Below are positions 21,771-49,215 of a stretch of 64,000 nt of DNA, one piece after another; the first letter of the stretch is position 1; each line of letters begins with the position of its first letter. The notes under the pieces were generated by a model. It was not told where the DNA came from, made no database searches, and saw only the letters and a list, made by a program, of their open reading frames with translations. The stretch lies in the IMG/VR virus record IMGVR_UViG_3300045988_183178; one strand, written 5' to 3'. This DNA comes from a virus. A program made the position numbers and the translations under genes.

Positions 21771-21820
21771 AACGATCATCCTTTCTTTTAGAATTAAGAA
21801 TAAAATCATTTGTTGCTTTT

Positions 21821-22963: not shown

Positions 22964-22978
22964 CTTATATGCTCCTTT

Positions 22979-23649: not shown

Positions 23650-23652
23650 AAC

Positions 23653-25225: not shown

Positions 25226-25328
25226 CTTTCTCTTTCCTTTCTGTTTTAATATATATTGTATTGTTTATTCTATTTTATAATGTTTTAGCCAGAAAACCCA
25301 TGGTCTTTAGACCGTGGAATGAATGGCG

Positions 25329-26588
25329 TTAAATTACCAAGGTCTGTATCATTTCAGTTGACCTTGCCATTATGCGTTTACAATTACTCAATTTAGGTGT
25401 CTTGTATCCTTTTGGCATTGCCGAAAAATCAACCTTGTTACCATCTATATCCATGAGAACTGCATATCCAGTGGACATTCTACCCTTGATAAAATATTTG
25501 TTTCCAAAGTATCGAACTTTGTCAAATTTTCTAAAGCCACAAATCTTATCAGTGATAATAGGCTGTTCTGAACGAATCCCTTTTGTTTTTTGAAAATCAC
25601 CATCTGAAATGCATTTCTTTTTGTAAAGGTTGGATTTTACAGTAAATATATTGCCTTGTGTTGCAATCGTACAGGCATCATAATAATGTTCTTTGTCAAT
25701 GCCAAGAAGCAAACGGTTAGCTTTTGTCACATATCCGAAGGTCTCAACTGCATCTGGATATAATTTAAAAAGCTGTTTACGAATAGAGTTCATCTGTGTG
25801 GCATATTTAAGATTACCTTTAACTTTACCACTCAATTTGGGGTTAATTTTTCCACTATGTAAATCTTTATGACAGGTATGACACAGAGTAATTAGATTAC
25901 TTTCTTCATCAGAACCCCCCTGACTACGAAATAAAATATGATGAACTTCTAACTTACTATCCTTATGTTTGCCTTTACAATATTGACAAGTATAATTATC
26001 TCGATTAAGAACCATCGCTTTGGTATTCTCAAACCCATAATTAATACCTTTCTGATAACCCCAATGTTTAATTTTAGGATTAGCAAGATTTGGATTTTTC
26101 ATAAGGTGAGTATCAAACTGACCTGTCTCAAATACCATTTCTGTAATCGGAAGAATAAATTTAATATATTTTATCTCTTTAACATGACTATGAAGCTTAC
26201 TCTGCATCGTAGGGCTAAATCTATCATTCTTAATAGAATTAGCACGATTTAACCATCTTGCTTTTCTATAACGAGCTTTACGATTTCGTCTGTTTCTACG
26301 ATACTTTGCTCTTTGTGTCATTTTGCCGGTAATGTCGTTTCTTATAACAACTTCCGACATATAGATAATATCTCCATTGTCTTTGCTTACAGAAGTGCCA
26401 ATAGTTCCGCTTCCGGTATCTACACCAAGAGTTAAGTCTTGAGTGTAATTTGTTGTTTCATAAGTCAATTTAATTGTAAATGGCTCACGTTTCTTAACTT
26501 TTGCTTTGCTTTGTTTAAGTAACAATCTTGCTATAGAGTTACTACAGGGCATTAGTGGTTTACCATCTTGTGAAATCACATAAACCAT
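25329..26588 (-). CDS. iscB: IscB RNA-guided endonuclease (PLMP domain, RuvC-I/II/III split by HNH, Arg-rich bridge helix)
   Basis: Motifs present: DGKPLMP; LGVDTGSGTIGTSV (RuvC-I); KYRRNRRNRKARYRKARW (bridge helix); CQYCKGKH..HHILFRSQGG..NLITLCHTCH (HNH with CxxC pairs); HYYDAC (RuvC-III). The 419 aa length is typical of IscB. RBS AAGGAGG. Confidence 0.8.
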   Translation of the reverse strand: MVYVISQDGKPLMPCSNSIARLLLKQSKAKVKKREPFTIKLTYETTNYTQDLTLGVDTGSGTIGTSVSKDNGDIIYMSEVVIRNDITGKMTQRAKYRRNRRNRKARYRKARWLNRANSIKNDRFSPTMQSKLHSHVKEIKYIKFILPITEMVFETGQFDTHLMKNPNLANPKIKHWGYQKGINYGFENTKAMVLNRDNYTCQYCKGKHKDSKLEVHHILFRSQGGSDEESNLITLCHTCHKDLHSGKINPKLSGKVKGNLKYATQMNSIRKQLFKLYPDAVETFGYVTKANRLLLGIDKEHYYDACTIATQGNIFTVKSNLYKKKCISDGDFQKTKGIRSEQPIITDKICGFRKFDKVRYFGNKYFIKGRMSTGYAVLMDIDGNKVDFSAMPKGYKTPKLSNCKRIMARSTEMIQTLVI

Positions 26589-26880
26589 AAATAAGTTCCT
26601 CCTTATAAATACTCTACTTAATAGTAGGTGATGCGTACTTTGTCGTACTGTTTACCATACGATTGTTCCGACTTCAACTCGACAATGATATAAAGGCTTT
26701 TATGTACATATCACAAGGCTGTTCTTACTCTGACCTAACTTAAATATGTACGATAGAGCAACGGTCTGTTGCGTCAACCGAAGGTATCATAACCTAAATA
26801 TCGTAGTATCCATTTCTGAATACTTAGTCTGGTGAACCATTTAACAGAAGCCCACTACCTTTAGGTGGTGGGCAGTTCAC
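26589..26880 (-). ncRNA. candidate omega RNA (IscB guide/scaffold RNA) immediately 5' of iscB
   Basis: No ORF on either strand and local G/C enrichment. Multiple potential stems, including the perfect hairpin GCCCACTACC/GGTGGTGGGC. Position and size match known IscB omega RNAs. Confidence 0.45.
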
Positions 26881-29083: not shown

Positions 29084-30112
29084 TTACATAAAAGATTGTA
29101 TACTATATCCTTTCCGTCTGAAACGAACTCTAATCTTTTTTATTGCTTTTGATTCAATCTGTCTGATTCGTTCTCTGGATACATTCCATTCAGTACCTAT
29201 ATCTTGTAAAGTTTTAACTTTTGAGCCATATCCCATTCTACCCTTAATTACATATAATTCTCTAGGAGTGAGACAATCTTCAACTTCTTTCCAAAGCAGT
29301 TCTTTCATTTCTTTTTGAATAATCGTATCTTCAACTTTAGGTTCAGGAGCTTCTATATAATCAGCCAAACATGAATCGTCATGGCCTTCATCACTTTGAA
29401 TAGGTGCATCTAATGAAACCAATTCATTAAAACTCTGAATATGCACAAGCATTTCTTTAGTTAAAAGAGGATATCTTTGTTTTACTACATCATATAATTC
29501 ATCAATTGTAGGTTTTCTTTGAAGTTTATTAGTTAAATCCACAAATGTAGTCTTAACAAAAGAATCCTGTTCTCTTACATGTACAGGGAATCTAACTAAT
29601 AAATCATAATTGGCTAATTCTCTATATATACTCTGTCTAATCCAATGAGTTGCATAAGTTGAAAATGCATATCCTAATTTATAATCAAACATTTGTATAG
29701 CTCTGTATAACCCGAAAATACCGGCCTGACATAAATCATCCATTTCAAAACTTTGCGTTTTAGCTGTAACAGCTTTAGCAATACTGATGACTAAACGCAT
29801 ATTAGATAAAATCAATTTTTCGGTTATTTCTTTTTTCTTTTTAGGATGTTTTTTTATCTCTTCAAATAATTTAAGAGTTTCATCTTTGGATAAAACCGGA
29901 TAATCAGCGAATGATTTAATATAATAAGTTATATTATTTTCTAATAATAGTTTCTCTTTTTCATTTAAAATCTCTTTATCATTTAAAATATCGGTATAAT
30001 TATCCTCTGATAAAATATTTATGTTTTCTATTGGTTTATTTGTATCAAATAATTCATCAATATATTCATCTTTATTGTTTTTTTTATTTAATAATAAATT
30101 CTTATCTGCCAT
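29084..30112 (-). CDS. sigma-70 family RNA polymerase sigma factor
   Basis: Region 2 (..GIFGLYRAIQMFDYKLGYAFSTYATHWIRQSI..) and region 4 helix-turn-helix (..LQDIGTEWNVSRERIRQIESKAIKKIR..). RBS GAGGAG. Confidence 0.85.
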   Translation of the reverse strand: MADKNLLLNKKNNKDEYIDELFDTNKPIENINILSEDNYTDILNDKEILNEKEKLLLENNITYYIKSFADYPVLSKDETLKLFEEIKKHPKKKKEITEKLILSNMRLVISIAKAVTAKTQSFEMDDLCQAGIFGLYRAIQMFDYKLGYAFSTYATHWIRQSIYRELANYDLLVRFPVHVREQDSFVKTTFVDLTNKLQRKPTIDELYDVVKQRYPLLTKEMLVHIQSFNELVSLDAPIQSDEGHDDSCLADYIEAPEPKVEDTIIQKEMKELLWKEVEDCLTPRELYVIKGRMGYGSKVKTLQDIGTEWNVSRERIRQIESKAIKKIRVRFRRKGYSIQSFM

Positions 30113-30523: not shown

Positions 30524-31435
30524 TTATTGCTCCTTAATTTCTATATTGATATTTTCAAAACACTTAATTACAAAATAAATTAAACTCATTATGCAGACTA
30601 TTAAAATGCATACCTGTAAATATATATTTGTTATAAAAAACGTAAATGGTATTAATGCCACACAGTTTATTAGAATATGATATAAGCTGCTAAGTTTAAT
30701 ACCATATTTATCTCTTACAGCACCTAACAAATATCCGCCAAAAGCATATATAGGGAATAAAATAAAATTAAAATGAATTATTCCAAATAAAACTGCTTGG
30801 ATTATATTTGCACATAATTTATTGTTGCTTGCTTTATATGCATAGCCATAAATTATATATCTAAAAGTCAATTCCTCAATAATAGGTGCCACAAAAGTTG
30901 CTATTATTGTAGATATAATTGTTTTTATTCCTAAACTTCCATAATCAATATCTGATACATTTACAAAATGCATTTGAATTCCTGAAATAAGCTGCAATAT
31001 TACAGAAATTAATATGAAACAAAATGCAAAATTCCAATTTACTACTAATTTATTTTTCATAAACAAATCTTTTTTATAATTGTAAAATGAGCTTTTTATA
31101 CAAATAAGGCACATAACAAACATTAATGTATATGTTGATATTGTGTAAATTAATCGAAATCCTTCATAATCTATTTTAGTTGAAATTCCTCCTGCATCAT
31201 TCATATACATATTTAATAGACTGTCTATAAATGTTGCAATAAACATTGAAAATAAAATTATAAAAACAGAAATAATAAATGGAATAAAAATCTTTATATA
31301 CTGTTTTGATTTTGAAAAGAAAGAATTACTTTTCATTTTGTTTTTCACCATAAAATCCATATAAGAATTTAAATCATGCTTATTTTTTTTATTTCTTAAT
31401 TCCTTAATATTACTGTTATTGTTACTAAGTATCAT
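30524..31435 (-). CDS. CPBP-family intramembrane metalloprotease (CAAX protease / Abi fold)
   Basis: Multi-TM protein with EELTFR (EExxxR) and FGIIHFN (FxxxH) motifs. Confidence 0.75.
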   Translation of the reverse strand: MILSNNNSNIKELRNKKNKHDLNSYMDFMVKNKMKSNSFFSKSKQYIKIFIPFIISVFIILFSMFIATFIDSLLNMYMNDAGGISTKIDYEGFRLIYTISTYTLMFVMCLICIKSSFYNYKKDLFMKNKLVVNWNFAFCFILISVILQLISGIQMHFVNVSDIDYGSLGIKTIISTIIATFVAPIIEELTFRYIIYGYAYKASNNKLCANIIQAVLFGIIHFNFILFPIYAFGGYLLGAVRDKYGIKLSSLYHILINCVALIPFTFFITNIYLQVCILIVCIMSLIYFVIKCFENINIEIKEQ

Positions 31436-31547
31436 ATATTTTCCTCCAACCTTTCTAATATATATATGACAGATACAATTTTAAAAATCTTTACATAAAA
31501 AAATACCGCTGCAATAAACAGCGGTAAAACATAAAATAAATATTAAA

Positions 31548-33233
31548 TTAGCATTTGCGTACTATTGAAGGTGCTGACATATCAGGGTTAATGAATTTCT
31601 TGCATAAATGTTCAATTCCGGTTGTTGAATCAAGCCAATATAAATAATCCCCGTCATTATCTACCAGATATTCATTAATAGAATCAAGAACATCGTTTAC
31701 TTCGGAAACAGTACATATAAATCTGTATGAAGACTTATTTTTCTTTAAAGGTTTAACAGACTTAACAATAATCTGATATACAGTTTCGTCATCTGAAGAT
31801 CTAAAATCATCTACTTGAATTTTTCCTGATAAACATAATTTAGCATCATTAACAAGTAAGTCTCTAATATTTGCATAATCTTTAGAAAAACATACACCAT
31901 TAATAGAACCTGTTTTATCTTCTACCTCAAAAGTTACCCATTCGTATCCATTTCTATCCTTTCTTACAACAAGATTTTTAATTATACCAGATACATCGTT
32001 AACTTCTGTTGAAATATCAGAAATGGGATCTGTATAAATATTATACTCATCAATTGGATGCCCTGTAATATAAACACCTAACACTTCTTTTTCATCATTT
32101 AGAATCTGACCTAAATCATCTTCTACATAATCAATATCTATATTTTCAAGATCATCTTCTAAGCTTTCTATAACTGTCTTAGCTGAATTGATACGTTTAA
32201 TTATGGAATCCTTAGTTGGCATCTTTTTTGAAGTAACTTGAAAGGAAATATTTTCTTCTGAAATTCTTTCCTTAAACTCATCAAGATCAATATAATCTTC
32301 CACAAATTCAATAACTTTACTTGCGTTTTCAATAAACTTACTCTTCTCTCTGATTTTCTTAATTGTATCCTGAATTTCTTTCATACAAATCATATCTAAT
32401 GATATCATTGTTCTTGTATAACCAAGGCAATCGAAAGCACCTGCTTTAATTAAGGAACTTAATGCTTCTGCATTAATATTTGTTCGTTTGATAAAATCCT
32501 TAATATCAGAATATTCTCCATTAACATTTCTATCTTCAATAATTTTAGCTGCTTCTGATCCAACATTCTTAATATTACTCAGACCATACAAAATGTTCCC
32601 ATCTACAACATCACAATGTAAATTTGAAGCATTAATGTCCGGAGGCAATACCTTTACTCCAAAATCAAGGGCATCACTAATATCATCAGCGACTTCATCA
32701 ATCTTATCAGTATGATTTATTACATTTGTAAGATAATAAGCCGGATAATAATACTTAAGAAAAGCAGTCCAATATGATGTAACAGCATAAGCAGTAGCAT
32801 GTGACTTATTAAACGCATACTTAGCAAAGTCAACCATCGCATCCCAGATTTTATGAGCAATTTCTTCTGATATTCCATTTGCAATACAACCTGGTACTAA
32901 TGCTTCATTTTCTTTTTTAGTATCAGCATTACCATATACAAAAGTGTGTCTTTCAGCATCAATCTCATCCTGATGTTTTTTTGACATAGCTCTACGGACT
33001 AAATCAGAACGCCCCCATGTATATCCTGCTAAATCACGAACAATCTGCATTACCTGTTCCTGATAAACTATCTGTCCATAAGTAGTTGACAAAATTGGCT
33101 CTAATTGAGGACATAAATATTTAATCTTAGATGCATCCTTTTTACCTTCTATGAAATCAGGTATAAACTTTTCAGGACCAGGACGATATAAAGCATTCAT
33201 TGCTATTAAATCTTCAATACCTGTTTTATTCAT
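31548..33233 (-). CDS. dnaE: DNA polymerase III alpha (DnaE-type) C-terminal segment (fingers, beta-binding, OB fold), translated as a separate polypeptide
   Basis: ALYRPGP, YQEQVMQI, FNKSHATAYA and the OB region are present. It has its own promoter motif at 33271 and AAAGGAG followed by ATG. The N-terminus (MNKTGIEDLIAMNALYRPGP) continues exactly where ORF 38783..39538 stops (..FQFESAGMRNNLKKL). Confidence 0.85.
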   Translation of the reverse strand: MNKTGIEDLIAMNALYRPGPEKFIPDFIEGKKDASKIKYLCPQLEPILSTTYGQIVYQEQVMQIVRDLAGYTWGRSDLVRRAMSKKHQDEIDAERHTFVYGNADTKKENEALVPGCIANGISEEIAHKIWDAMVDFAKYAFNKSHATAYAVTSYWTAFLKYYYPAYYLTNVINHTDKIDEVADDISDALDFGVKVLPPDINASNLHCDVVDGNILYGLSNIKNVGSEAAKIIEDRNVNGEYSDIKDFIKRTNINAEALSSLIKAGAFDCLGYTRTMISLDMICMKEIQDTIKKIREKSKFIENASKVIEFVEDYIDLDEFKERISEENISFQVTSKKMPTKDSIIKRINSAKTVIESLEDDLENIDIDYVEDDLGQILNDEKEVLGVYITGHPIDEYNIYTDPISDISTEVNDVSGIIKNLVVRKDRNGYEWVTFEVEDKTGSINGVCFSKDYANIRDLLVNDAKLCLSGKIQVDDFRSSDDETVYQIIVKSVKPLKKNKSSYRFICTVSEVNDVLDSINEYLVDNDGDYLYWLDSTTGIEHLCKKFINPDMSAPSIVRKC

Positions 33234-33268
33234 TTTAAATTTCTCCTTTCAATTCATAACTATATAAT

Positions 33269-33281
33269 TTATGACAGAAAA
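33269..33281 (-). promoter_or_regulatory. conserved promoter-like motif upstream of the separate dnaE C-terminal ORF
   Basis: TTTATGACAGAAAA is followed on the plus strand by hairpin 33291-33308. Confidence 0.55.
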
Positions 33282-33319
33282 TTAAAAAAAGCGTCCAATT
33301 TTGGACGCTTGCATGAATA

Positions 33320-33625
33320 TTAAAAAGAATACTTGTTACATATATTTTCTTTTATATAAGTGATCAAATTTTTAGCATAATCTATTCTGTCTTTTAATTT
33401 ATCAATATCATTAATATCATATGAAACATTACCAGTAATACTAATATAAAAATCATCTTTTATGGTTTTAATTTCAATATCATAATATGGAATCTTTGGA
33501 GTAAAAAAGAATCTTATGACTTTACCTGTTCTTGAATCTCTTCTTAATAGAATTTTATATGTTTTATTATCGTATTCATCTATTATCCATGGACCGGATT
33601 CATATGTTCTAATAAAAGTTACCAT
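33320..33625 (-). CDS. hypothetical protein
   Basis: ORF. Confidence 0.65.
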   Translation of the reverse strand: MVTFIRTYESGPWIIDEYDNKTYKILLRRDSRTGKVIRFFFTPKIPYYDIEIKTIKDDFYISITGNVSYDINDIDKLKDRIDYAKNLITYIKENICNKYSF

Positions 33626-34206
33626 TATCTTACTTCTTCCTCTCTGTTATCTTTATTAATTTCAGTATGAATTACATCTGGCATAATTTTATCTTCATCA
33701 TCTTCTCCGCCTAAATCTAAATCAATATCTGATAGTTCATTTGTGTCAATATTGTTTGTTATATTACTAATATTAACACTTTTACAATTTTGAGTCATTG
33801 CCTTTATAACATCATCTATAGTTTTAGCATCTCTACCGATTCCGTCAAGATAAAAAGCAGCCGTTATCTGGGCGCAAAAATCTGCGATTATATGTCTATC
33901 AGTTGTTTCAGGGCAAAACTTAGGAACATTATAATATTCACAATCTCTATTGATTTGGGAACACGCAGCTATTGCAGCTTCATGTTTAATTCTCCGATTT
34001 TTATCCATAGACTGAATAGCTTCTCGTAATTCTTCTCCCTCAAGTGTAGCATATTTAATTGGAGTTGAATAGTTTTGATGATAAACAATCTGTACATATT
34101 CTCCAAATGCGGCCATATTGTAATTTAACATATCTAAATCATTCTCTCTATATTCATTATCTGGCGAATTTATTGCATTTACTAATTCCTTAAATTCTTT
34201 AATCAT
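33625..34206 (-). CDS. hypothetical protein
   Basis: ORF. Confidence 0.7.
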   Translation of the reverse strand: MIKEFKELVNAINSPDNEYRENDLDMLNYNMAAFGEYVQIVYHQNYSTPIKYATLEGEELREAIQSMDKNRRIKHEAAIAACSQINRDCEYYNVPKFCPETTDRHIIADFCAQITAAFYLDGIGRDAKTIDDVIKAMTQNCKSVNISNITNNIDTNELSDIDLDLGGEDDEDKIMPDVIHTEINKDNREEEVR

Positions 34207-34305
34207 ATTTTTTACTCTCCTTCCATTTATTGTTATAATAAATAAATGACAGAAAAATAAAATAACAAGTACCCATTAATAGGTACTTGTTATTAAGCAT
34301 TTGTT

Positions 34306-34722
34306 TTAATTTGAATCACTCTTATCATGTACAAAATATAATTTTTGTATTAATTCAGATTTTCTTTTTTCATACTGAAATAAATCATTACATTCACATG
34401 ATAAAAAACTTGCAGCAGAATCAATCTGTTTTACAATTTCCTTTACTATACAATCAATGATTTCCTTTGGTGATTCCAATAGTTTAATTAGGCCTAAATG
34501 CTCCCCTTCATGAATTATGAAAGCTGTATCTGGTGTCAAAACTAGCGTTGCTGTAGAGCCTTCAGAATCAAAATAACAGGATGCCGTATTATTGTTATAA
34601 TAATTAATGCACATATCTAATAAGTCATTTGGGACATCAGTTAAATATGAAGCGTTCACTCTACAATTTGTCTTTTCGAATTTAATATTACACCAACCAT
34701 TTGTTAAAATTTCAATTATCAT
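34306..34722 (-). CDS. hypothetical protein (start at MIIEIL)
   Basis: AAGGAGAAAATC then ATG. Confidence 0.65.
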   Translation of the reverse strand: MIIEILTNGWCNIKFEKTNCRVNASYLTDVPNDLLDMCINYYNNNTASCYFDSEGSTATLVLTPDTAFIIHEGEHLGLIKLLESPKEIIDCIVKEIVKQIDSAASFLSCECNDLFQYEKRKSELIQKLYFVHDKSDSN

Positions 34723-34742
34723 GATTTTCTCCTTAAATATAA

Positions 34743-35624
34743 TTATAAGCAAACAATGTTGCCATTTTTAAGTATACTTATAATACTGTTAAGTTCATAC
34801 AAACCTAATATCTGCTCACTAATTTCATTTAACATATTATCTGATACATTAGCGTTATAAGCATCAAGTTCTACATCTGTTTTTATTGTTGCTAAAATTT
34901 TTGACAACAAAATATTATCTTCACTATTTATTAAACAAGTTGAAATACTTTTTCCTTTAGACATATTAGATTCAATATCTGAAATATTCATATATATGTT
35001 AAACAAATTTCCATACTTATGTATTAGTTTACTTGCAGTTTTAGGACCAATACCTGCAGCTCCAGGAATATTATCCGATTTATCTCCCATTAATGTTTTT
35101 ACATCAATAAACTGTTTAGGAGTAACGAAATACTCATTCATAATTTCTACCGGAGTCCAAATATCTTCCGGGTTGTTTGGAACAACTAATGATACTAAAT
35201 CATTACATAATTGTAACAAATCATGATCTGCAGATATAATATTAACCTTATTTCCGGCTTTACTTTCAATAGTTGAAATTGTTCCTATAATATCATCTGC
35301 TTCATATCCTTCTTTTTCAATAACACATATATTCATTGTTTTAAGAATAGGAACAATAGCCTGTCTCTGAATCTTAAATTCTTCCGGTGCAGGATCTCTA
35401 GTTGCCTTATACCCGTTATACATTAAATGCCTGAAAGTTGGCTTTGCAGTATCAAACGCAACAATTAATTCATCAGGACTATACTTTTCTTTCATATATA
35501 GAATTGTATTTAAAGCTCCTTTAATTGCATTAGTCGGAAATCCCTTTGAGGTTTTTAATTCTGGAACACCATAAAAAGATCTTCTGAGAATGTAATTCCC
35601 ATCAAAAATCATAATATTTTTCAT
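34743..35624 (-). CDS. 5'-3' exonuclease / flap endonuclease (Pol I N-terminal-domain / T5 D15-like)
   Basis: N-terminal domain IFDGNYILRRSFYG; the catalytic region has EADDIIGT; H3TH-like GIGPKTASKLIHKYG. RBS AAAGGAG at the internal start MKNIMIF. Confidence 0.8.
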   Translation of the reverse strand: MKNIMIFDGNYILRRSFYGVPELKTSKGFPTNAIKGALNTILYMKEKYSPDELIVAFDTAKPTFRHLMYNGYKATRDPAPEEFKIQRQAIVPILKTMNICVIEKEGYEADDIIGTISTIESKAGNKVNIISADHDLLQLCNDLVSLVVPNNPEDIWTPVEIMNEYFVTPKQFIDVKTLMGDKSDNIPGAAGIGPKTASKLIHKYGNLFNIYMNISDIESNMSKGKSISTCLINSEDNILLSKILATIKTDVELDAYNANVSDNMLNEISEQILGLYELNSIISILKNGNIVCL

Positions 35625-35732
35625 TAATTTTTCTCCTTTATAATTTTTAATATATTTATGACAGAAAAAAAGCAGGAAACATAAGTCTCCCGCTTTCAAA
35701 AAATCTTATTTAGTTATGAAAAATCAAAATAT

Positions 35733-35990
35733 TCAATTTCTTTCACTTAAGAATTTTTCCACAGCATCTTCAACAGCTTCATATTCAGTAAGACCGTTAC
35801 CTTCTGCGTAAGTATCATAAGCTGCTTCACCAATATCAATATAATCATTCTCAGTAATATCAGAATGATATTGAGACTGAATAATCTCTTTAGCTGTATT
35901 AATCATCCATGTTGAAACAAATTCCTTATGAGCAGCATAAATTTCGTCATATGTTAATTTTATTTCCTTACCATTTCTTATTATTGTCAT
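35733..35990 (-). CDS. small hypothetical protein
   Basis: AAAGGAG then ATG. Promoter-motif variant at 36037. Confidence 0.65.
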   Translation of the reverse strand: MTIIRNGKEIKLTYDEIYAAHKEFVSTWMINTAKEIIQSQYHSDITENDYIDIGEAAYDTYAEGNGLTEYEAVEDAVEKFLSERN

Positions 35991-36072
35991 GTCTTATTCT
36001 CCTTTAGTTGTTATTATTTTCATCAGAATTATCATATATGACACTTTCAATTATATTAATTGCTGTATTTGC

Positions 36073-36129
36073 ATGAACTACTCACAACCGACTATTGTCG
36101 GATGGAGTTTTCTTACAATTCTTCGATAA
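36073..36129 (+). repeat. 57 bp dispersed repeat, copy 1 (ATGAACTACTCACAACCGACTATTGTCGGATGGAGTTTTCTTACAATTCTTCGATAA)
   Basis: Near-identical to copies 2-5. Contains the hairpin ACTC..CCGAC TATT GTCGG..GAGT followed by TTTTCTT on the plus strand. Confidence 0.8.
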
Positions 36130-36160
36130 TATTTAAAGTTTTCATAAAATTCCTTTCTTT

Positions 36161-36619
36161 TTACAATGTACTTTTTATAACCTTAACAGGTTCTAATCTG
36201 CCGTTTATAAATGAAGCAGTTCCTAATGTTTTATCAGTATTTTTAGAAGATTCAAAGAAATCATTTGCCATATCCTCATTTGAAAAATATGAATATTCTC
36301 CTGAATTGTCTCCGCAATCTGACTCATATCCTATCCAAACATAATAAAATGAAAATCTTTCAAGGTTATCACTGTCGTCAGGGATTGCTCCGTTCCAATC
36401 ATCATTTTCTTTTATATCTTCTTCTAATTCATATTTAAACTCGCTCATCATATTAGGATCGTCTAAATATACACATTTATGGTAATTATCAACTGCAATT
36501 GCGCATTTCTGTCCTAATGGATGCAGTAAATAATTCTTAGGCACTTCCAATAATGCTCCTATCATATCATTTACTGTTTCTAAGTTATTTTCCTTAATTT
36601 CAAATGCATTAGTTTTCAT
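36161..36619 (-). CDS. hypothetical acidic protein
   Basis: ORF. Confidence 0.65.
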   Translation of the reverse strand: MKTNAFEIKENNLETVNDMIGALLEVPKNYLLHPLGQKCAIAVDNYHKCVYLDDPNMMSEFKYELEEDIKENDDWNGAIPDDSDNLERFSFYYVWIGYESDCGDNSGEYSYFSNEDMANDFFESSKNTDKTLGTASFINGRLEPVKVIKSTL

Positions 36620-36703
36620 AATTTTATTCTCCTTTTTAAATTTTATAATAATACAATGACAGAAAAATAAAAAAACTGGCTACTAATAGTAACCAGTTTA
36701 ATT

Positions 36704-37693
36704 TTATAACTTTACAATTTTCTCATTAACTTCCATTCTAAATGTATTGATTTTGTCTATATCCGGCTCATCTGGCAATACAGAGTTTTTACATGCATTT
36801 TCAAACTTATTCTTGTATTCATCTACTATTTCAAAGAAATGTTTATTAGGGATTCCATTTTCATCAAGATATACACCATTTCTAATATCCATCAACAAAT
36901 CATGTTCTTTAATTCTTTTCGTTTGAATTTTCCCTTCAGAAACTAAATCAATTCCCATCATATACAATCTAAGTAAATGCATACTATGTTTTGCTATTTT
37001 ACCATGATTTAATGCATGTTCATTCCTTTTACTTGTTTTCCGGTAATCTCTTAAAGTGTTATTAAATTCTGAAAGCATTCCTGACAAATCTTCCATTGAA
37101 CACTGTGTTGCAATAATATTGCATTTGATTTTGCCGTCAACCAAATAAAAAGACACATTATTTTCATCTAAATTGTACTTATCGTTCATTTTCTTGGACA
37201 TATTATTAAGCACTCCAGAAATGTGTCTATTTAATTCTTCTTCCGTTAAAGCAGCGTTGGTCTTCTGCTGCATACGGTATAACTGTTGTAATGCATATTC
37301 ACTAAATGTATTAATACATCTATTCGATAAAAAAATATCTTTATTTTTTAATAAAAGCTCCCCAAATTCATTTTTATAAATATAATCATCTGTATCTAAT
37401 CCTAAAAGTTCAATAGTGTTTGGATTGCATTTAGCTAATAAATCAATAATTTTGTCAAAACTATAAATAGTTGTATCTGTATTAACATCTACAAAATTTT
37501 CAAAATCATTACCTAACAAGATATCTTCTTTTCTTCTAACAGCAACTCCTCTTATATCAATATCGCTTTCTGGAAGATTTGTCCCATATGCTCTGCTACC
37601 ACCTAATCCAAGTATACAAATATTCTTATCTAAATTTTGATTTTCCTTTAAAAATGAATACTCAGGCATATTTAATATATTTTTATTTATCAT
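36704..37693 (-). CDS. Pol-beta-superfamily nucleotidyltransferase (GS..DxD) with a C-terminal helical domain
   Basis: LGLGGSRAYGTNLPESDIDIRGV matches hG[GS]x9-13Dh[DE]h. Confidence 0.65.
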   Translation of the reverse strand: MINKNILNMPEYSFLKENQNLDKNICILGLGGSRAYGTNLPESDIDIRGVAVRRKEDILLGNDFENFVDVNTDTTIYSFDKIIDLLAKCNPNTIELLGLDTDDYIYKNEFGELLLKNKDIFLSNRCINTFSEYALQQLYRMQQKTNAALTEEELNRHISGVLNNMSKKMNDKYNLDENNVSFYLVDGKIKCNIIATQCSMEDLSGMLSEFNNTLRDYRKTSKRNEHALNHGKIAKHSMHLLRLYMMGIDLVSEGKIQTKRIKEHDLLMDIRNGVYLDENGIPNKHFFEIVDEYKNKFENACKNSVLPDEPDIDKINTFRMEVNEKIVKL

Positions 37694-37715
37694 ATTCTCT
37701 TCCCTATCCTTGTAA

Positions 37716-37771
37716 TTAAACTACCCACAACCGGCTATTGTCGGTTGGGGTTTTTTGCTTAATTGCGATAA
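37716..37771 (+). repeat. 57 bp dispersed repeat, copy 2 (diverged; ends 22 nt before the nucleotidyltransferase ATG)
   Basis: AAACTACCCACAACCGGCTATTGTCGGTTGGGGTTTTTTGCTTAATTGCGATAA. Confidence 0.75.
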
Positions 37772-37781
37772 TATCATTCTT

Positions 37782-38414
37782 TTATTTTCTAACAATAGCA
37801 GAAAAATCTACTGACTGTAAAATCTTAATGATATCTTCTACTTCAGGACTTCTCCATGCAGTCATAGCATAGGTATGAGCGTACTCATCGTAATGATAAT
37901 GATTTGCCTTTAGATGTTCAGCGGCTGCCTTTTCTGTTAAAAACATTGTGTTTTCATAAATTTTATCTCTATATGCATAACAGGTGAAAGTATATCTGCC
38001 ATAATTATGCTCATTCAACCAAGTCTTTAAATCATCAAGATCAGCTAAACATTCCTCATAATCATTATCTTCTTTTGATGTAACATAATATCCATCATAT
38101 TCTTTTGAAATAACCCAAGAATCACCGTTTTCTTCAAATTCCTTATTAAAAAATACAATTGCATCATCAATATTATCAGCAACTTCTTCGACTGCCTCAT
38201 TATCTATTAATGTTACACCGTCTTCATATCCTTCTGGAACAATACACTTTTCTTTCCCCATAATAACCCAAAATCGAGGATCAGCTTGTCCTACATGGTC
38301 CTGTGTATTTAATTCATGCTGCAAATCAGACAAAAATTTGATTTCTTTATCTGTAATTTTATGTTTCTCTACTGTGTCTGGATGGTATTGTAAATGTTCA
38401 TGAAATATTGCCAT
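37782..38414 (-). CDS. hypothetical protein
   Basis: ORF. Confidence 0.7.
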   Translation of the reverse strand: MAIFHEHLQYHPDTVEKHKITDKEIKFLSDLQHELNTQDHVGQADPRFWVIMGKEKCIVPEGYEDGVTLIDNEAVEEVADNIDDAIVFFNKEFEENGDSWVISKEYDGYYVTSKEDNDYEECLADLDDLKTWLNEHNYGRYTFTCYAYRDKIYENTMFLTEKAAAEHLKANHYHYDEYAHTYAMTAWRSPEVEDIIKILQSVDFSAIVRK

Positions 38415-38441
38415 ATTTTTCTCCTTAAACTTTATTTATTT

Positions 38442-38678
38442 TTATTCAGTATAGTATTGGAATGCACAATCATACATTTGTTTCCCAGTTATCTGATCTG
38501 TGAATATAGGGCAATGCCAATCCTTATTAAATCCTGTTTCCTTACACCATTCATTAATAACTCTAGTAGTAATTGGTGTGACAAATACATATAAATCTGA
38601 TTCATGGTGAAACATATCTTTTTCAGAATATCCAACCTCAATGAATCGTTGCATAAGAGTTTTATTATTTTTCTCCAT
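38442..38678 (-). CDS. small hypothetical protein
   Basis: AAGGAGAACAATATT then ATG. Confidence 0.6.
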   Translation of the reverse strand: MEKNNKTLMQRFIEVGYSEKDMFHHESDLYVFVTPITTRVINEWCKETGFNKDWHCPIFTDQITGKQMYDCAFQYYTE

Positions 38679-38716
38679 AATATTGTTCTCCTTTATTTAT
38701 TATAATTTAAAAGAAA

Positions 38717-38729
38717 TATGACAGAAAAA
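38717..38729 (-). promoter_or_regulatory. conserved promoter-like motif immediately after dnaE exon 2
   Basis: TATGACAGAAAAAA plus hairpin 38731-38752. Confidence 0.55.
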
Positions 38730-38782
38730 ACGCACATCATAATGACATGCGTTTTAATACAAAATATTCAATTAACTATTCA

Positions 38783-39538
38783 CTATGAGCATAACTTCTT
38801 AAGGTTATTTCTCATACCGGCTGACTCAAACTGGAAAACATTCTTAGTTCTTCCTTTTGCATATACTTCTTTGTATACCTTATCAGCTTTAGGACCCTCT
38901 AATGGAATATTCATTACATCAATTACTTCTCCTGTATCTCTCTGAATCATTCTGAGTGTGTCAGTAATAATTGTAAGAGTTTTTAATCCAAGAAAATCCA
39001 TTTTTAATAATCCATTAGCTTCGCACTGAATCATGTCCATTTCTGTAGTTTTAATTCCCTTTTTTCCATCTCTAATAGGAATATAATCAGTAACATCATT
39101 ACTATCATAAATAATAACACCTGCGGCATGTTGTGCGTATGTCGTAAGCATACCTTCACAATGAGCTGCAATATTAAGAATAGAAATAGCATCTGGATTA
39201 CTATTATATTCATCCTTTAAGAAATCTAACAAAGAAATGCTGTCCTGAATATTAATGCCTAATTCATCAACCTTATTAGTATCTTTCATGCCAACAATAT
39301 CTTCAAAATTAGTTGCTTTAGCAGGCACTTTCTTACGAATCTGATCTCCTAAAGATAAGAATTTCTTTTCATCATCATAAGCTTTCTTTCCATAATATCT
39401 TGCAGCATCTCTGATAGCACCTTTAGCCTGCTGTCTTGATTCTGTAATAATTCCAACAACAGCTTCACTACCATATTTAGCTCTTACATACTCAATTGTC
39501 TTTTCTCTTACTCCAAGAGCAAGATCACTATCGATATC
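38783..39538 (-). CDS. dnaE: DNA polymerase III alpha exon 2 (palm: DIDSD .. KMDFLGLKTL .. FQFES)
   Basis: Protein begins at the catalytic DxD and ends KKLCS followed by a stop. There is no start codon or RBS of its own; it is joined to exon 1 by the intron. Confidence 0.7.
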   Translation of the reverse strand, partial: DIDSDLALGVREKTIEYVRAKYGSEAVVGIITESRQQAKGAIRDAARYYGKKAYDDEKKFLSLGDQIRKKVPAKATNFEDIVGMKDTNKVDELGINIQDSISLLDFLKDEYNSNPDAISILNIAAHCEGMLTTYAQHAAGVIIYDSNDVTDYIPIRDGKKGIKTTEMDMIQCEANGLLKMDFLGLKTLTIITDTLRMIQRDTGEVIDVMNIPLEGPKADKVYKEVYAKGRTKNVFQFESAGMRNNLKKLCS

Positions 39539-40478
39539 CAAATATACCCCTACTTTCGTAGTACTTTAACACTTGTATAAGTGGGATTAGACTATATCTC
39601 AATATAATATTGTTAATATTATATTTCAACGCACTTCCAACTGTAACCATTCTCAGTTGTACTCCTTAAAAAGGATAGTCGTTACACTTTAAAATAAATA
39701 ATATTATATACGAACAATTTTTAAGTCATTCCATTTTAAATATTTATGCATTGAGGAATAACTTGCGTTATATTTTTCTTTAGCATATCGAGCTGCTGCT
39801 AATATGCTTTCAAATCTATCAATTAATATATCTCCTTTATATAATTTACAACACTTATAATTTCTTACAGGAGACATAGTTTTATAACTATCATATAAAT
39901 TGTCTTTTCTAGTACACCATTCTAAATTATTCACCTTACAATTTTGTTTATTTTTGTCTTTATGATTAACTTCTGGTAGATTATAAGGATTAGGAATAAA
40001 ATTCATCGCAACTAATCGATGCAATAAATATTTTTTATTATCTAATCTTATCATCCTGTAATTCTTTTTACTATCTAAAAAAGGTTTAAGTTGTCGAATT
40101 TTCCCTTGTTTTATACTAAAAATCTTTCCATATGAAGTTATGTAATATTCGTGGTGATTTTTAATTTCTACTATTTTTTCACCTTTTTCAAGGAATGATG
40201 TAAAATTGATATAATCTATCATAAATATACACCTCCTTATTTATATAATATTATTTATAATCTTAGCACGGTATCGCCTGCTATCCTTCAATATCTTTTA
40301 TATAAAAATATTAGGACCGTAGGTTCTCTTACGAAGCTGCTTCGTCTATGGGTTAAGCTATATATCCTGTTGTGACACTTTATATAGCAGTCTTATTCAA
40401 CTTCTACCGTTAGCACTTAATAATAAAATATTAAGCACACCTCTGAGTTAGAGTCCACGCTGAACGCCCAATATATTT
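39539..40478 (-). other. group I intron (about 940 nt) interrupting dnaE at the SMP|DID codons; carries an HNH homing-endonuclease ORF
   Basis: The 5' exon ends in U (..ATGCCT) and the intron ends in G (..GGGTATATTTG). The intron has G/C-rich structured flanks, including an S-like element GAGATATAGTCTAATCC and an ACTACGAAAGTAGGG hairpin. Confidence 0.65.
39704..40222 (-). CDS. HNH homing endonuclease (freestanding phage HNH_3-like)
   Basis: HRLVAMNFIPNP...EVNHKDKNKQNCKVNNLEW matches the HNH motif of phage intron endonucleases. AAGGAGG then ATG. Confidence 0.8.
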   Translation of the reverse strand: MIDYINFTSFLEKGEKIVEIKNHHEYYITSYGKIFSIKQGKIRQLKPFLDSKKNYRMIRLDNKKYLLHRLVAMNFIPNPYNLPEVNHKDKNKQNCKVNNLEWCTRKDNLYDSYKTMSPVRNYKCCKLYKGDILIDRFESILAAARYAKEKYNASYSSMHKYLKWNDLKIVRI

Positions 40479-42272
40479 AGGCATACTTACTCTTTCTGGA
40501 TTTAAGAATCGTTCAAAAATCAGATTATACTTAAATGGATCAATTCCGGTAATACCAAGTAAATATGTAACCAATGAACCGGCACCTGAACCTCTTCCAA
40601 TGCCTATTCCAATTCCGGTATTATAATTGTGAGCCTTAACATACTCTTTTGCACCTTCAATTGTTAAAGGTACTTCTGATAGTTTATCCATAGGTACTAA
40701 TCCACAAATTCTTCCATATTCCAGGAAGTCCTTTACAATTAAATGATAATCGGCAAAGCCCATCTGAATGATAATATTAAGTTCGTATTCCATTCGTTTC
40801 TGATGTTCTTCATCCCATCCTTTTCCGTTAGGATATCTCCAATTAATTCCCTTAATTGCTTCAGATCTTAATAATTCGTTTGAGTCCTTGTTCTTATCAA
40901 ATACTGGATAATGATTAGATTTTTCTGGAATATAAGCACATCTTTTTCCAATTACATTTAAGTTATTGAGTGCTTCTGCAACCTGATCATCTGTTAATAT
41001 AGCTGATAAGGCCTGAGCAAGTTCGTAAGGTGTTTTTACATATAACTCTTTATCTGATTCCGACTCACTTATCTTAATAAATCTTAAAAATTTAGCTACA
41101 TTACGCATATCAATACTTCTATCAGAATTATCTGCCATATGTGCATCATTAGCAGCAACTAATGGGATATTATGCTTCCTTGCTAACTGAGCTAACACAG
41201 GATATGTTCTGCTTTCCATTTCAAGCCCATGATTCTGAACTTCAATGTAATAATTACCTGCTCCAAAAATTTCCTGATAAAAAAGCATTGTCTTTTCTGC
41301 TTCAGACATTAATTCTATTGGGCTTTTCTTTAATGATTCATAATGCTGTATCTTATTTTCATGATTAATATATTCCTCTACTTTAAGACTTATATCCTTT
41401 AACTCGGCTTTCTTAGCATTAACTAATTTTCTGACATTAGGAATTTTATCTTTAGCTTCCAGAATTTTATTATTTATCTCCTCATATTCGTTAATCAGTT
41501 TAATAAGCTCTGGATCATCATCATTTAAACACTTTCTTGCATCTCTTAATTTTCTTGAAATCTGTGTTCTTTCTGATTTAAGTTCCTTGGAATCACGAAT
41601 ATTAATCAATTCATCTAAATCTGCCGATACCCTTTCAAATTCATCTTTAGCTGAAAGATATTCTTTATCATCAGGACTTATACAATCACGTATAACTAGC
41701 TCGTCTTTTTCAGTAGTATGCTGCTGTGCTTTTCTTTCTCTGTTAATCATTTTATCCAAAACATCATCTGATAATAATTGCAGAGCTGGTGCACCCGAAA
41801 CGCAAGCAGAAGTTGCTATTATATCACCGTTAAAGTTATATTTCTTTAAATCTGATATTGTAATAACAGGCTTTCCCATTCTTTTTTCAGAAGCCTTAGA
41901 ATTTAACTTATCAATAATATGCTTGCCTCTTTCTGAAGTGGCTAACATAATCATATGGCCAATCTGCTCATTTATCTTAAATGGTGGCACTTCAATATAA
42001 GCCTCTACGCCATAAATGATATTAAAAGGATGTTCCTCAGTACTTATTTTCTTAGCGTAATCAATACATGTTTGCATTGCTGAAAATGATGCATGGTCCG
42101 TAACAGCAAATTTAGTATATCCTGCATTAAATGCAGCATCTAAATAACTTTTAGGTTCATCTACGGCATCAAACAAAGAGCCTCCTGGATGGTTATGTTC
42201 ACACACTGTAACTCCTGACTCAATAACCTTTTTTGTTAATTCTCCAATTTTTACATGTTCAAACATTGACAT
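40479..42272 (-). CDS. dnaE: DNA polymerase III alpha exon 1 (PHP domain and start of palm; ends at ..[11 protein letters not shown])
   Basis: [12 protein letters not shown] / TDHASF PHP motifs, then [21 protein letters not shown]. Confidence 0.85.
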
Positions 42273-42306: not shown

Positions 42307-42319
42307 CATGACAGAAAAA
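42307..42319 (-). promoter_or_regulatory. conserved promoter-like motif upstream of dnaE exon 1
   Basis: CATGACAGAAAAAA plus hairpin 42322-42349. Confidence 0.55.
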
Positions 42320-42321
42320 AT

Positions 42322-42349
42322 ACACCAGTTGACTAATCTCAACTGGTGT
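42322..42349 (-). terminator. intrinsic terminator (ACACCAGTTGA/TCAACTGGTGT)
   Basis: 11 bp stem plus T-run on the minus strand. Confidence 0.7.
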
Positions 42350-42383
42350 ATAAATACACATTATTTAATTGTTAATTATTTTA

Positions 42384-48330: not shown

Positions 48331-49215
48331 TTATTTTGTTTGATAAAGAAGATATGACAGAAAATTATTTACATTAGAATGTGAACTGTTATTTCTTATT
48401 ACTAAAATATTTCTGATAACAATTATGAAAAATATAATACTCATTACGATTAGACAAATATTTTGTAACATAACAGGCATAAAAGAGTACAATACACTAC
48501 TTGCATTAACTCCAATATGAATTAAAATAGAGGACAATAAATTATCTGTTTTTATATATACATAGGCTAATATAATACCGAAAATAAATGCATAAGTGCT
48601 TTGAATAATATTAAAATGTACTAATCCAAAAACGAAAGCTGATATATAAATTGAGCTTACATCTGGTTTCTTAAAGAATTTGTTTTGCTTTATTATTTTT
48701 GTAATACCGTATCTAAATATTAATTCTTCAACAACTGGCGTAATAACACCTGTTATTAAGAGTACTTGAAGCCAATTTCCGGTTACAGCAACATTCATCA
48801 AAGAATTATATGAATTAGAAACCAAATTATTAGGTAAGGAATCTATTACCACAGAAGCTAAAAAATTCATAATAATGCCTGTTAAAATAAATGTCTTGAC
48901 ATCTTTTAATGATAATTTTGAAATAAATATGATTGATTTATTAACTTTATATTCTTTAAGCATAACAAACCCAAGTATTATAATATCGGAAACAAATAAT
49001 GCAGGCATAATTAATTCACTGAGCATACTAAGATAACTATATGAAAGTAAATTACCTGTTTCTATACATACATATAAATTATCATACCATTGTGAATCAG
49101 AAAACAATTTAAAAATAAATACGCCCAATGTACATACAATTTGAGTAATAAGAAAGGCAAATACTATTCCAATAATCTTTGTAATTTGTTTAATCATTAT
49201 TTTGTTGACCTCCAA
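48331..49215 (-). CDS. CPBP-family intramembrane metalloprotease (second copy)
   Basis: EELIFR, FGLVHFN and HIGVNA motifs in a multi-TM protein. Confidence 0.75.
   Translation of the reverse strand: MEVNKIMIKQITKIIGIVFAFLITQIVCTLGVFIFKLFSDSQWYDNLYVCIETGNLLSYSYLSMLSELIMPALFVSDIIILGFVMLKEYKVNKSIIFISKLSLKDVKTFILTGIIMNFLASVVIDSLPNNLVSNSYNSLMNVAVTGNWLQVLLITGVITPVVEELIFRYGITKIIKQNKFFKKPDVSSIYISAFVFGLVHFNIIQSTYAFIFGIILAYVYIKTDNLLSSILIHIGVNASSVLYSFMPVMLQNICLIVMSIIFFIIVIRNILVIRNNSSHSNVNNFLSYLLYQTK

Follow-up and report, generated by a model that had tools for sequence, protein, structure and literature searches.

General features of the dnaE locus

The window analysed here is a 64-kb stretch of a phage genome of ~95-103 kb from gut metagenomes, whose host is possibly a Lachnospiraceae bacterium. 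It encodes a DnaE-type (C-family) DNA polymerase in three DNA pieces separated by two breaks, and all genes from 31548 to 42272 lie on the minus strand. Exon 1 (40479..42272) carries the PHP domain and the first part of the palm, and its last base is U. Exon 2 (38783..39538) opens with the catalytic DIDSD, contains the rest of the palm, the thumb and the first ~60 residues of the fingers, and ends ..NNLKKLCS (FQFESAGMRNNLKKLCS), followed by TAG and then TGA. The C half (31548..33233; 561 aa) starts MNKTGIEDLIAMNALYRPGP behind its own AAAGGAG ribosome-binding site, with a terminator ahead of it, and supplies the rest of the fingers (motifs ALYRPGP, YQEQ and FNKSH), the HhH domain and the OB fold. 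The original prediction had placed the polymerase in these three segments, with exon 1 ending in U and the adjoining 940-nt insert ending in G; every coordinate and both terminal bases were confirmed.

An HMM or structural alignment of the three ORFs against DnaE had also been proposed, and it found them contiguous, with zero residues missing. The Pfam tiling is exact (DNA_pol3_alpha 55-102 / 103-260; finger domain 1-59 / 63-162), and solved structures give the same picture (E. coli alpha ..623 / 628..; M. tuberculosis DnaE1 ..651 / 651..; the pieces also align to T. aquaticus alpha). The domain set is complete and in order (PHP, palm with the DxD aspartates, thumb, fingers, HhH, OB), and the catalytic and finger motifs are all intact. 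This DnaE is the only polymerase recognised in the 64-kb window. Values of dN/dS are 0-0.17 in all three pieces, which indicates that each is under purifying selection. Four independent assemblies (L001, L002, L090 and L091) carry the same split, so it is not an assembly artefact. In the region of the internal clamp-binding motif of bacterial DnaE, the phage protein has a helical insert of ~95 residues instead, which is also found in a contiguous relative.

The insert at the catalytic site

The 940-nt insert (39539..40478, minus strand; terminal G at 39539) lies between the SMP and DID codons and adjoins the catalytic aspartates. It is present in the window and in L001, and absent to the base from L002, L090 and L091, whose flanks are 98-99% identical. 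The intron-less alleles read ..ATGCCT|GATATC.. and join the exons in frame (..AGTATGCCT|GATATCGAT..), so that the boundary is fixed independently. In the protein database, the 849-aa protein that they encode is the usual form (P0241, 251 member sequences). The element is evidently optional in the population and mobile, as judged by comparing these alleles.

Both ends of the insert are homologous to introns of Firmicutes phages. Five such introns were aligned, four of them at the same DnaE codon boundary: those of a Staphylococcus phage SPbeta-like (KT429160), Enterococcus phage EF1 (MF001358), Clostridium phage CS266P1 (OP172775) and Mammaliicoccus phage phi116 (PV389079). These four share the ..P|DID.. 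insertion point with the window intron, are ~70-80% identical to it in nucleotide sequence at both ends and form its helices, with compensatory changes. The EF1 record annotates its endonuclease as 'Phage intron'. The SPbeta-like phage is the one same-site case whose downstream exon was read to the end; there DnaE is contiguous after the intron (dnaE_1, 829 aa), with no split in the fingers, and the intron has no endonuclease, unlike that of the window. Homologous introns also interrupt unrelated phage genes.

The insert has the expected pairings at both splice sites. In P1, the guide sequence GGGCGU (40464-40469) pairs with exon bases 40479-40484 (AUGCCU), giving six pairs, the last of them the U.G at the 5' splice site, and this U.G recurs in 6/6 aligned introns. 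Position 3 of P1 covaries with the exon, being G-C in three sequences and A-U in two. Directly 5' of the guide, AUAUU (40470-40474) forms P10 with GAUAU, the first five bases of exon 2. The core consists of P3 (40456-40463 with 39626-39633), P4 (40405-40410 with 40268-40273), P6 (40265-40267 with 39686-39688) and P7 (39676-39680 with 39590-39594), arranged as a P3/P7 pseudoknot around P4-P6 with extra, IA-like hairpins after P7. The long-range P3 forms 8/8 pairs in every sequence, five with compensatory changes; P4 and P6 show compensatory changes too, and P7 is invariant. In the alignment of six sequences (the window intron and the five homologous phage introns), 93.5% of cells form a pair, compared with 25-45% when the partners are slid, and 19 pairs are changed on both sides, compared with 1-6; both values were reached by 0/500 shuffles. 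Two further covarying hairpins sit between the 5' strand of P3 and P4, which is not known from the textbook group I layout, so that the helix names, which are our own assignment, may be off.

Neither of two generic indicators singles out the element. The folding energy of the intron ends is not unusual (z = -0.67 and -1.57), and the Rfam model Intron_gpI gave no match here at the gathering score or at E<=10. As a control, the homologous introns in L081-L083 also had no match at E<=1, which makes the Rfam negative uninformative here; one of them splits the lysin gene of a Streptococcus thermophilus phage in two. Covariance models of this kind are known to overlook phage introns (PMC11878797).

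The insert contains an ORF of 172 aa (39704..40222, minus strand) with its own AAGGAGG ribosome-binding site, situated in a peripheral loop that is closed by an A-U stem (intron positions 220-229 / 776-785). Its product has the Pfam domains HNH_3 (5.9e-9) and NUMOD4 (4.6e-4), matches PHROG 59 at 2.6e-34 and matches the structure of I-HmuI (1U3E; E=1.2e-8; 172 aa against 174 aa). It is predicted to be an I-HmuI-like HNH homing endonuclease. The intron-less alleles, the same-site homologues and the covariation thus uphold the original prediction that a group I intron, bearing an HNH endonuclease, occupies the SMP|DID site, and they indicate that 39539-40478 is a mobile group I intron, phage IA-like and of an ordinary kind.

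The break in the fingers domain

At the second break the N half stops at 38783 and the C half restarts at 33233. The N half contains the PHP, palm, thumb and first finger helices. The break maps to a four-residue loop between two fingers helices (E. coli alpha 624-627); the model of a contiguous relative places it in loop 269-272, flanked by helices 259-268 and 273-283. Only 2 residues of the N half and 5 of the C half extend beyond the DnaE alignment at this point.

The same break recurs widely. Stand-alone C halves form ~30 protein clusters of 41-99% identity that start at the same point, all of them beginning 10-83 residues before ALYRPGP. N halves form ~20 clusters of 808-893 aa and end ..FQFESxGMRxxLKxL plus 1-4 residues in every C-terminus read (five loci plus P0248). 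The N half is always upstream of the C half on the same strand, and the identities of the two drop in parallel across relatives. All six lineages with enough contig to look have the N half on the same contig as the C half; P0020 (L093) and P0008 (L092), with too little upstream sequence, stand outside this count. As regards a single origin of the split, the contiguous P0259 and P0265 fall inside the smallest clade that contains every split sequence in 129-130/200 bootstraps, and in 90-91/200 with P0040, the deepest of the split sequences, omitted. The halves appear to be fused again in at least one lineage (P0247). On this comparative evidence, the second break is a real gene fission that is not private to this phage, and the split is evidently old and persists in a clade of phages and phage-plasmid-like elements.

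Expression signals are separate for the two halves, each having a terminator, a promoter-like motif, a ribosome-binding site and a start codon of its own. Upstream of exon 1, within 42307..42351 on the minus strand, a terminator hairpin (42320-42351) is followed by the promoter-like motif TTCTGTCATG (42307-42316), 35 nt upstream of the N-half start codon. The unit ahead of the C half (33234..33310, minus strand) comprises a terminator (33289-33310), the TTCTGTCATA motif (33270-33279) and the ribosome-binding site; the two halves have the same promoter-like motif at an equal distance from the start codon. A further terminator follows the C half (31504-31526, minus strand). The claim that the C half is separately initiated, giving two polypeptides, agrees with these signals, and the split proved to be conserved across the clade.

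The 5.5-kb gap between the halves (33234..38782, minus strand) holds nine ORFs, including a FEN and a nucleotidyltransferase, as originally described: 78 aa, phrog_3205, an RlaP-type nucleotidyltransferase, 152 aa, 85 aa, a 5'-3' exonuclease (FEN), 148 aa, DUF3232 and 101 aa. Most have their own unit of terminator, TTCTGTCATA and ribosome-binding site. A comparison of synteny in related phages, suggested with the original prediction, shows gaps of 93 nt (L088), 2.0 kb (L086), 2.3 kb (L095), 3.9 kb (L094), 5.5 kb (window) and 18.4 kb (scaffold_3127, read in part), with differing gene content. In L088 the same split has a spacer consisting of the 93-nt terminator/promoter alone. No homing endonuclease, recombinase, transposase or intein was found in the 33234-38782 cassette, and no homing endonuclease at the break in the window, L086, L088, L094 or L095. 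The suggestion that the arrangement reflects an old mobile-element insertion into the fingers is therefore not borne out: the cassette lacks such genes, and the fission is independent of it because the L088 spacer is 93 nt and gap contents vary. The cassette itself looks like a later addition.

Proposed working of the two-part polymerase

Taken together, it is likely that the two breaks in dnaE arose by two unrelated mechanisms, a mobile group I intron and a gene fission. Self-splicing of the mRNA would presumably remove the intron and leave an N half of 849 aa, the same length as the product of the intron-less alleles. The N half and the 561-aa C half are most likely made separately and would assemble non-covalently, held by the contacts that keep the fingers domain together in an ordinary DnaE; most likely, then, the enzyme consists of two subunits that are not covalently linked. 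After the fission, different lineages would have gained different genes between the halves. With just 2 and 5 extra residues, however, the halves offer almost nothing that could serve as a dedicated docking module. A more ambitious proposal, which we consider rather unlikely, is that the fission is a maintained two-subunit C-family design in which the timing of the C half is controlled, the gap is favoured for accessory genes such as the FEN, and the split is reversible (P0247).

The C half might instead have acquired a role of its own beyond completing the N half, perhaps in DNA binding or processivity and together with further partners such as the host DnaE. The separation of the halves by up to 18 kb and the replacement of the clamp-binding-motif region by the helical insert would suit such a role. 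However, the N half alone should be inactive because most of the fingers, including FNKSH and YQEQ, is missing from it; moreover, the C half is accompanied by an N half in all six lineages with enough sequence, the halves diverge in parallel, and the insert also occurs in a contiguous relative. We regard this role as improbable.

It is also very improbable that the intron remains unspliced and that three polypeptides are made. Without splicing, the exon 1 ORF would continue for 16 unrelated codons past base 40479 to a TAA (40431..42272), and exon 2 would have to be translated on its own. The original prediction held that exon 2 has neither start codon nor ribosome-binding site, which is too strong because the last three intron bases (39539-39541) are a TTG in frame with exon 2, a possible start, preceded at 5 nt by GGGG. 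In homologous introns a GGAG-like run precedes a terminal AUG, gene callers list stand-alone 'MDIDSD..' proteins of ~250 aa in relatives, and the lineage already tolerates one non-covalent split. Against three polypeptides, this break abuts the two catalytic aspartates, the insert has all the group I sequence features and is homologous to introns in unrelated phage genes, its guide pairs with both exons and covaries with exon 1, and the intron-less alleles encode a contiguous protein.

Breakage of an essential gene usually signals decay, and the phage could be using the host polymerase while its own gene degenerates into a pseudogene. This is highly improbable given that ~30 C-half and ~20 N-half clusters share the break at identities as low as 41%, with low dN/dS, intact catalytic and finger motifs, and separate expression signals on each half. 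Least credible of all is that the halves become covalently joined, whether through a split intein, trans-splicing of the RNA, a giant intron, bypass by the ribosome or loss of the cassette from the DNA by excision. In its favour, a split intein ligates the halves of cyanobacterial DnaE, metagenomes contain 'fractured genes' with split inteins (PMC2677866) and the N half ends in Cys-Ser, but the 2 and 5 extra residues leave no room for intein halves, Pfam detects no intein domain, the 64-kb window has neither a second copy of the intron family nor a group II intron, a terminator and promoter-like motif separate the halves even when they are adjacent (93-nt gap), and the gap reaches 18.4 kb in a relative and lacks a recombinase in the window.

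Comparison with known systems

Cyanobacterial DnaE is likewise a C-family polymerase encoded by two distant genes and broken within the fingers region. Its break adjoins the FNKSH motif, ~130 residues further on than the phage break. The cyanobacterial halves carry intein halves (~100 residues N-terminal and ~35 C-terminal) and are ligated, whereas the phage halves must stay separate because no intein residues exist.

By analogy, the best functional precedent for a split phage DnaE is gp43 of Aeromonas phages 25 and 44RR, a family-B polymerase split as 43A/43B with an untranslated spacer or an inserted gene between them, whose two polypeptides co-purify and are active (PMC2988022). At the level of the genes alone, the DnaE halves are alike in being separately translated, each with its own ribosome-binding site and start codon, in being individually conserved and in being complete together. 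They differ from gp43A/B in polymerase family and fold, in the gap (93 nt to 18 kb, with up to ten genes), in having no homing endonuclease at the break in the loci read, and in that the split is common to a large, diverse clade. In T4-like jumbo phages, two free-standing products of separate genes are predicted to reconstitute a minimal Pol III alpha; this catalytic core lacks PHP, HhH and OB, is split between the nucleotide-binding and metal/template-binding parts of the catalytic module, and accompanies a family-B replicase (Iyer et al. 2021, PMC7824862). Here, in contrast, the break falls in the fingers of a full-length DnaE, and no other polymerase was recognised in the window.

The intron resembles that of the SPO1 DNA polymerase gene, with I-HmuI, and those of the Bastillevirinae (PMC11878797) in its U.G, terminal G, P3/P7 core, IA-like hairpins after P7 and endonuclease ORF in a peripheral loop, as well as in lying at the catalytic site of a replication gene and being optional among close relatives. 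PHROG 59, matched by its endonuclease, is the commonest family of intron endonucleases in that study (PMC11878797). The dnaE intron differs in interrupting a C-family dnaE, where the SPO1 gene encodes an A-family polymerase, and in having the two covarying hairpins between P3 and P4 and going undetected by the Rfam model.

Significance

The intron alone is a new host-gene example in a familiar class, and the split is the more useful result; in our literature searches, no account came up of a full-length DnaE that is split but lacks an intein. These genes are currently annotated as 'OB-fold protein' or as partial polymerases, so the replicase of these phages will escape any pipeline that looks for a full-length polymerase. 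Evolution has tried out the break point in dozens of lineages, and it offers a ready site for engineering split C-family polymerases. The split DnaE also provides a system for asking how a fingers domain assembles from two chains, and a clear case of gene fission followed by the accumulation of genes between the halves, with apparent re-fusion.

Three DnaE segments tile one polymerase

All genes of the DnaE region are carried on the minus strand. The first ORF (40431..42272) encodes the PHP domain and the start of the palm up to base 40479, after which it runs through 16 unrelated codons to a TAA. The second (38783..39538) starts with DIDSD, the catalytic aspartates, contains KMDFLGLKTL and FQFES, and ends in ..GMRNNLKKLCS ahead of two stop codons, TAG then TGA; the third (31548..33233) starts with MNKTGIEDLIAMNALYRPGP and encodes the remaining fingers, the HhH domain and the OB fold. 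The DnaE parts of the first two (40479..42272 and 38783..39538) are exons 1 and 2 of an N half of 849 aa; the third is a separate C half of 561 aa. Pfam profile positions tile exactly across the pieces (DNA_pol3_alpha 55-102 then 103-260; finger 1-59 then 63-162). On solved structures, exon 2 stops at residue 623 of E. coli alpha and the C piece picks up at 628, and both broken ends fall on residue 651 of M. tuberculosis DnaE1. Together the pieces make up a DnaE with no part absent and no substantial addition. The coordinates of the original prediction were correct, as was its expectation that the three ORFs would align to a single DnaE without a missing segment.

Exon 1 residues ~172-320 (window ~41310-41760) form a coiled-coil-like insert of ~150 residues within the PHP domain, which is absent from most distant DnaE relatives, their alignments jumping query residues 172-320. 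C-half residues ~280-375 (window ~32110-32400) form a helical insert of ~95 residues in the place of the internal clamp-binding QxSLF motif of bacterial DnaE; TSKKxPTKxSI is conserved within the insert, QxSLF was not evident there, and the contiguous relative P0029 also has the insert (helices 534-624 of its model). The window encodes two Rce1-like (CPBP) membrane proteases (30524-31435 and 48331-49215), one of them directly downstream of the C half, a position kept in several relatives (L084, L086 and L092).

The insert at the catalytic site is optional

The 940 nt between exons 1 and 2 (39539-40478) are an optional insertion. Two phage contigs in IMG/VR are near-identical to the window: L001 (103 kb) carries the insert with 1 base different, and L002 (95 kb) is missing window 39539..40478 to the base, reading in frame ..AGTATGCCT/GATATCGATAGC.. 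(slashes mark junctions) with 1 synonymous difference from the window within 100 nt each side of the junction. The insert is also missing from two further near-identical assemblies, L090 and L091, where the N half is 849 aa, and the database cluster of the 849-aa N half has 251 member sequences. The spliced exon junction would read AAGAGTAAGTATGCCT/GATATCGATAGTGAT.

More distant phage DnaE genes have inserts of their own, some located at or near SMP/DID (~1.07 kb, 0.45 kb and 1.3 kb; L026, L027 and L040) and one of 2.3 kb inside exon 1, further upstream than SMP/DID (L004); none of the four gave an RNA family match in Rfam.

Elsewhere in the window, a 1602-nt element (25279-26880) combines a HEARO RNA (Rfam 107.7 bits, at 26667-26880) with an IscB-like ORF (25329-26588) that has RRXRR and HNH domains. 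It is exactly missing in L001 and L002 (empty site ..GGTGAATTAA/ATAAAATAG..), as if a mobile element with an RNA-guided nuclease had recently inserted into the phage genome.

Identification of a group I intron

The original prediction of a group I intron at this site is supported by the guide pairing, the terminal G, homologues at the same site, covariation and the intron-less alleles. In the AUGCCU/GGGCGU pairing the terminal U of exon 1 pairs with a G, the start of exon 2 pairs with the five bases immediately upstream of the guide sequence, and the last base of the insert is G. Both non-coding intron ends have DNA homologues in phages of Firmicutes, and four homologous introns occupy the same point of DnaE: a 464-nt ORF-less copy between dnaE_2 and dnaE_1 of an SPbeta-like Staphylococcus phage (..ERPELP/DIDID..), one in Enterococcus phage EF1 whose inner HNH gene is labelled 'Phage intron' in the record, one in Clostridium phage CS266P1 (..LP/DIDVD..) with an I-HmuI-like gene, and one in Mammaliicoccus phage phi116. 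The intron's 3' domain also matches an insert in Streptococcus thermophilus phage P7151, where it divides the lysin gene so that two CDSs are annotated. The lysin intron of S. thermophilus phages is a described self-splicing group I intron.

Since homologous introns were available, the helices could be tested instead of guessed; they were assigned with the homologues, and covariation was scored on a six-sequence alignment. Standard pairs fill 93.5% of the pair cells, compared with 25-45% after a shift of the 3' partners by 1-3 columns, and both-sided changes occur in 19 of 43 pairs, compared with 1-6 after the shift; none of 500 shuffles attained the observed pairing and covariation values. 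P3 lies in its expected place, with one strand just past the guide sequence and the other between the post-P7 hairpins and P8, and is paired at all 8 positions in all sequences, with compensatory changes at 5. P4 covaries (ACGGUA/UACCGU vs ACAGUA/UACUGU), as do P6 and the guide sequence with its exon (G-C vs A-U), and P7 (GACUA/UAGUC) is unchanged in all six sequences. The two hairpins after P7 are likewise found in IA-type phage introns. Two extra covarying hairpins between the P3 strand and P4 match no textbook group I layout that we recognised, and the helix names are therefore provisional. Folding energies of the intron ends did not differ significantly from those of shuffled sequences. 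Rfam scans of the window and of the intron gave no group I match; neither did the homologous introns, that of the S. thermophilus phage included, and Rfam-like models are known to overlook phage introns (PMC11878797), so we regard this negative as a limit of the model and uninformative. On these features the insert is a group I intron, a further example of a familiar class, one already annotated at this site in at least one deposited phage.

The HNH endonuclease ORF inside the intron encodes 172 aa behind its own AAGGAGG ribosome-binding site and matches HNH_3 and NUMOD4, PHROG 59 and the I-HmuI structure 1U3E; PHROG 59 is reported as the endonuclease that phage polymerase introns carry most often (PMC11878797). 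Exon 2 had been thought to lack any start signal, but the final three intron bases (39539-39541) are TTG, in frame with exon 2, with GGGG five bases upstream. Homologous introns (loci L081, L098 and L099) end in AUG, in frame, after a GGAG-like run, and gene callers consequently list stand-alone 'MDIDSD..' proteins of ~250 aa in relatives. Exon 2 could thus be translated from unspliced RNA; the product would begin at the catalytic aspartates, separated from the palm's first half.

A gene fission common to a clade

The second break, from the stop of exon 2 to the restart of the C half, is a gene fission common to a clade. The C piece as query retrieved ~30 clusters (41-99% identity, 558-658 aa), which have the finger, HhH and OB domains without the palm and all start 10-83 residues ahead of ALYRPGP. 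With the spliced N half as query, ~20 clusters came up (808-893 aa), and all N-half C-termini read (five loci and P0248) end in ..FQFESxGMRxxLKxL plus 1-4 residues. At the split point, contiguous relatives have a four-residue linker (EPSS, RPES, GPET or QPTS; QPDC in E. coli). Contiguous P0029 was modelled with AlphaFold at moderate confidence (mean pLDDT 71, ~75 near the site), the model representing a single relative instead of the N+C complex; in it the site is a loop (residues 269-272) that connects helices 259-268 and 273-283. Identity to the window falls in parallel for exon 1, exon 2 and the C half (65/76/65%, 52/58/47%, 49/57/46% and 44/47/41%), and dN/dS between the window and close relatives is 0-0.17 per piece.

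In the deposited-phage collection, megablast of the 12-kb region found no match, and protein searches found contiguous DnaE only, at ≤40% identity, with no member of the split clade. Species-representative genomes yielded, at ≤41% identity, host DnaE from Lachnospiraceae and other Clostridia, a scan that assigns no host, and also two contig-end fragments that turned out to be contiguous. The sole hint of a host comes from L090, whose MAG is labelled Lachnospira pectinoschiza.

The first tree, with one split clade, suggested a single irreversible fission, a reading that was dropped after the N-half search brought up three contiguous full-length relatives at 47-55% identity (P0247, P0259 and P0265). 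All trees were neighbour-joining only, with the bootstrapped tree built on the whole C region (200 replicates). P0247, a real ORF of 1403 aa encoding a contiguous DnaE (L183 4001-8212, on a 34.5-kb contig), falls within the split clade in 200/200 replicates and is sister to P0017, the lineage with adjacent halves, in 167/200; its linker has seven residues without the usual proline (..LKEL-LHDGKGS-IEDII..). The simplest reading is that P0247 represents a secondary re-fusion of the halves. P0259 and P0265 retain the xPxx linker and fall inside the smallest clade that contains every split sequence in 129-130/200 replicates, or 90-91/200 without P0040, the deepest split sequence. ParA/ParB-like genes lie upstream of P0247 on L183.

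The gap between the halves

At all loci of the gap comparison the N half lies upstream of the C half on the same strand. The gap is 93 nt in L088, with only a terminator, a TGTCATAT motif and a ribosome-binding site; 2.0 kb in L086 (FEN, DUF3232 and one small gene); 2.3 kb in L095 (four small genes); 3.9 kb in L094 (an AAA_5 ATPase and a CobT_C-like protein); 5.5 kb in the window (33234-38782), with nine ORFs, ten being called in L090; and 18.4 kb in scaffold_3127 (N half P0248 at 21363-23837, C half P0011 at 1257-2936). An old mobile-element insertion, proposed earlier as the origin of this break, finds no support: Pfam and PHROGs detected no homing endonuclease, recombinase, transposase or intein in the window's cassette, and its flanks, as read by eye, are only terminator/TTCTGTCATA units, as throughout the window, rather than private repeats. 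The cassette looks instead like ordinary gene units gathered in a pre-existing intergenic gap.

Its content varies even among ~98%-identical genomes, window 36078-36125 (48 nt) replacing 176 nt of L001/L002 (6981-7156), and an additional ORF of 68-89 aa is called at this spot in L090 and L091. In some relatives (L084, L085 and L093) the C half comes after Rep3-type initiator and ParA genes, with the N half 18.4 kb upstream; such elements may be phage-plasmids.

Probable assembly from two chains

Upstream of each half lies one and the same unit, made up of a terminator, TTCTGTCAT(A/G), ~25 nt, AAAGGAG and ATG; the promoter-like motif sits 35 nt from one start codon and 37 nt from the other. The halves are probably expressed in like manner. 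With at most 1 mismatch, TTCTGTCATA has 51 copies in the window vs 10 expected by chance, ~29 of them on the coding strand (e.g., 42307-42316, 38717-38726, 35657-35666 and 33270-33279), each after a T-run or terminator and ~25 nt ahead of an AAAGGAG ribosome-binding site, and L088 has the similar TGTCATAT between its DnaE halves. TTCTGTCATA probably serves as a promoter specific to the phage, and the sigma factor encoded at 29084-30112 possibly recognises it.

The broken ends carry only 2 and 5 extra residues, leaving no space for intein halves, and neither a second copy of the intron family nor a group II intron was found in the 64-kb window of the ~100-kb genome. With no room for an intein, no recombinase and no second intron, covalent rejoining of the halves is very unlikely. 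Cyanobacterial DnaE is also split, but an intein rejoins it. Among phage polymerases, split enzymes are known in family B (PMC2988022), and T4-like jumbo phages are predicted to have a minimal Pol III alpha core that is split (PMC7824862); in the open-access literature we found no account of an intein-free split in the fingers of a full-length DnaE, which is not proof of novelty. The enzyme is most likely a non-covalent heterodimer of the N and C halves. We liken it to the split family-B polymerase gp43A/B of Aeromonas phages 25 and 44RR, whose halves co-purify and are active (PMC2988022). Within this phage group the split is old and widespread.
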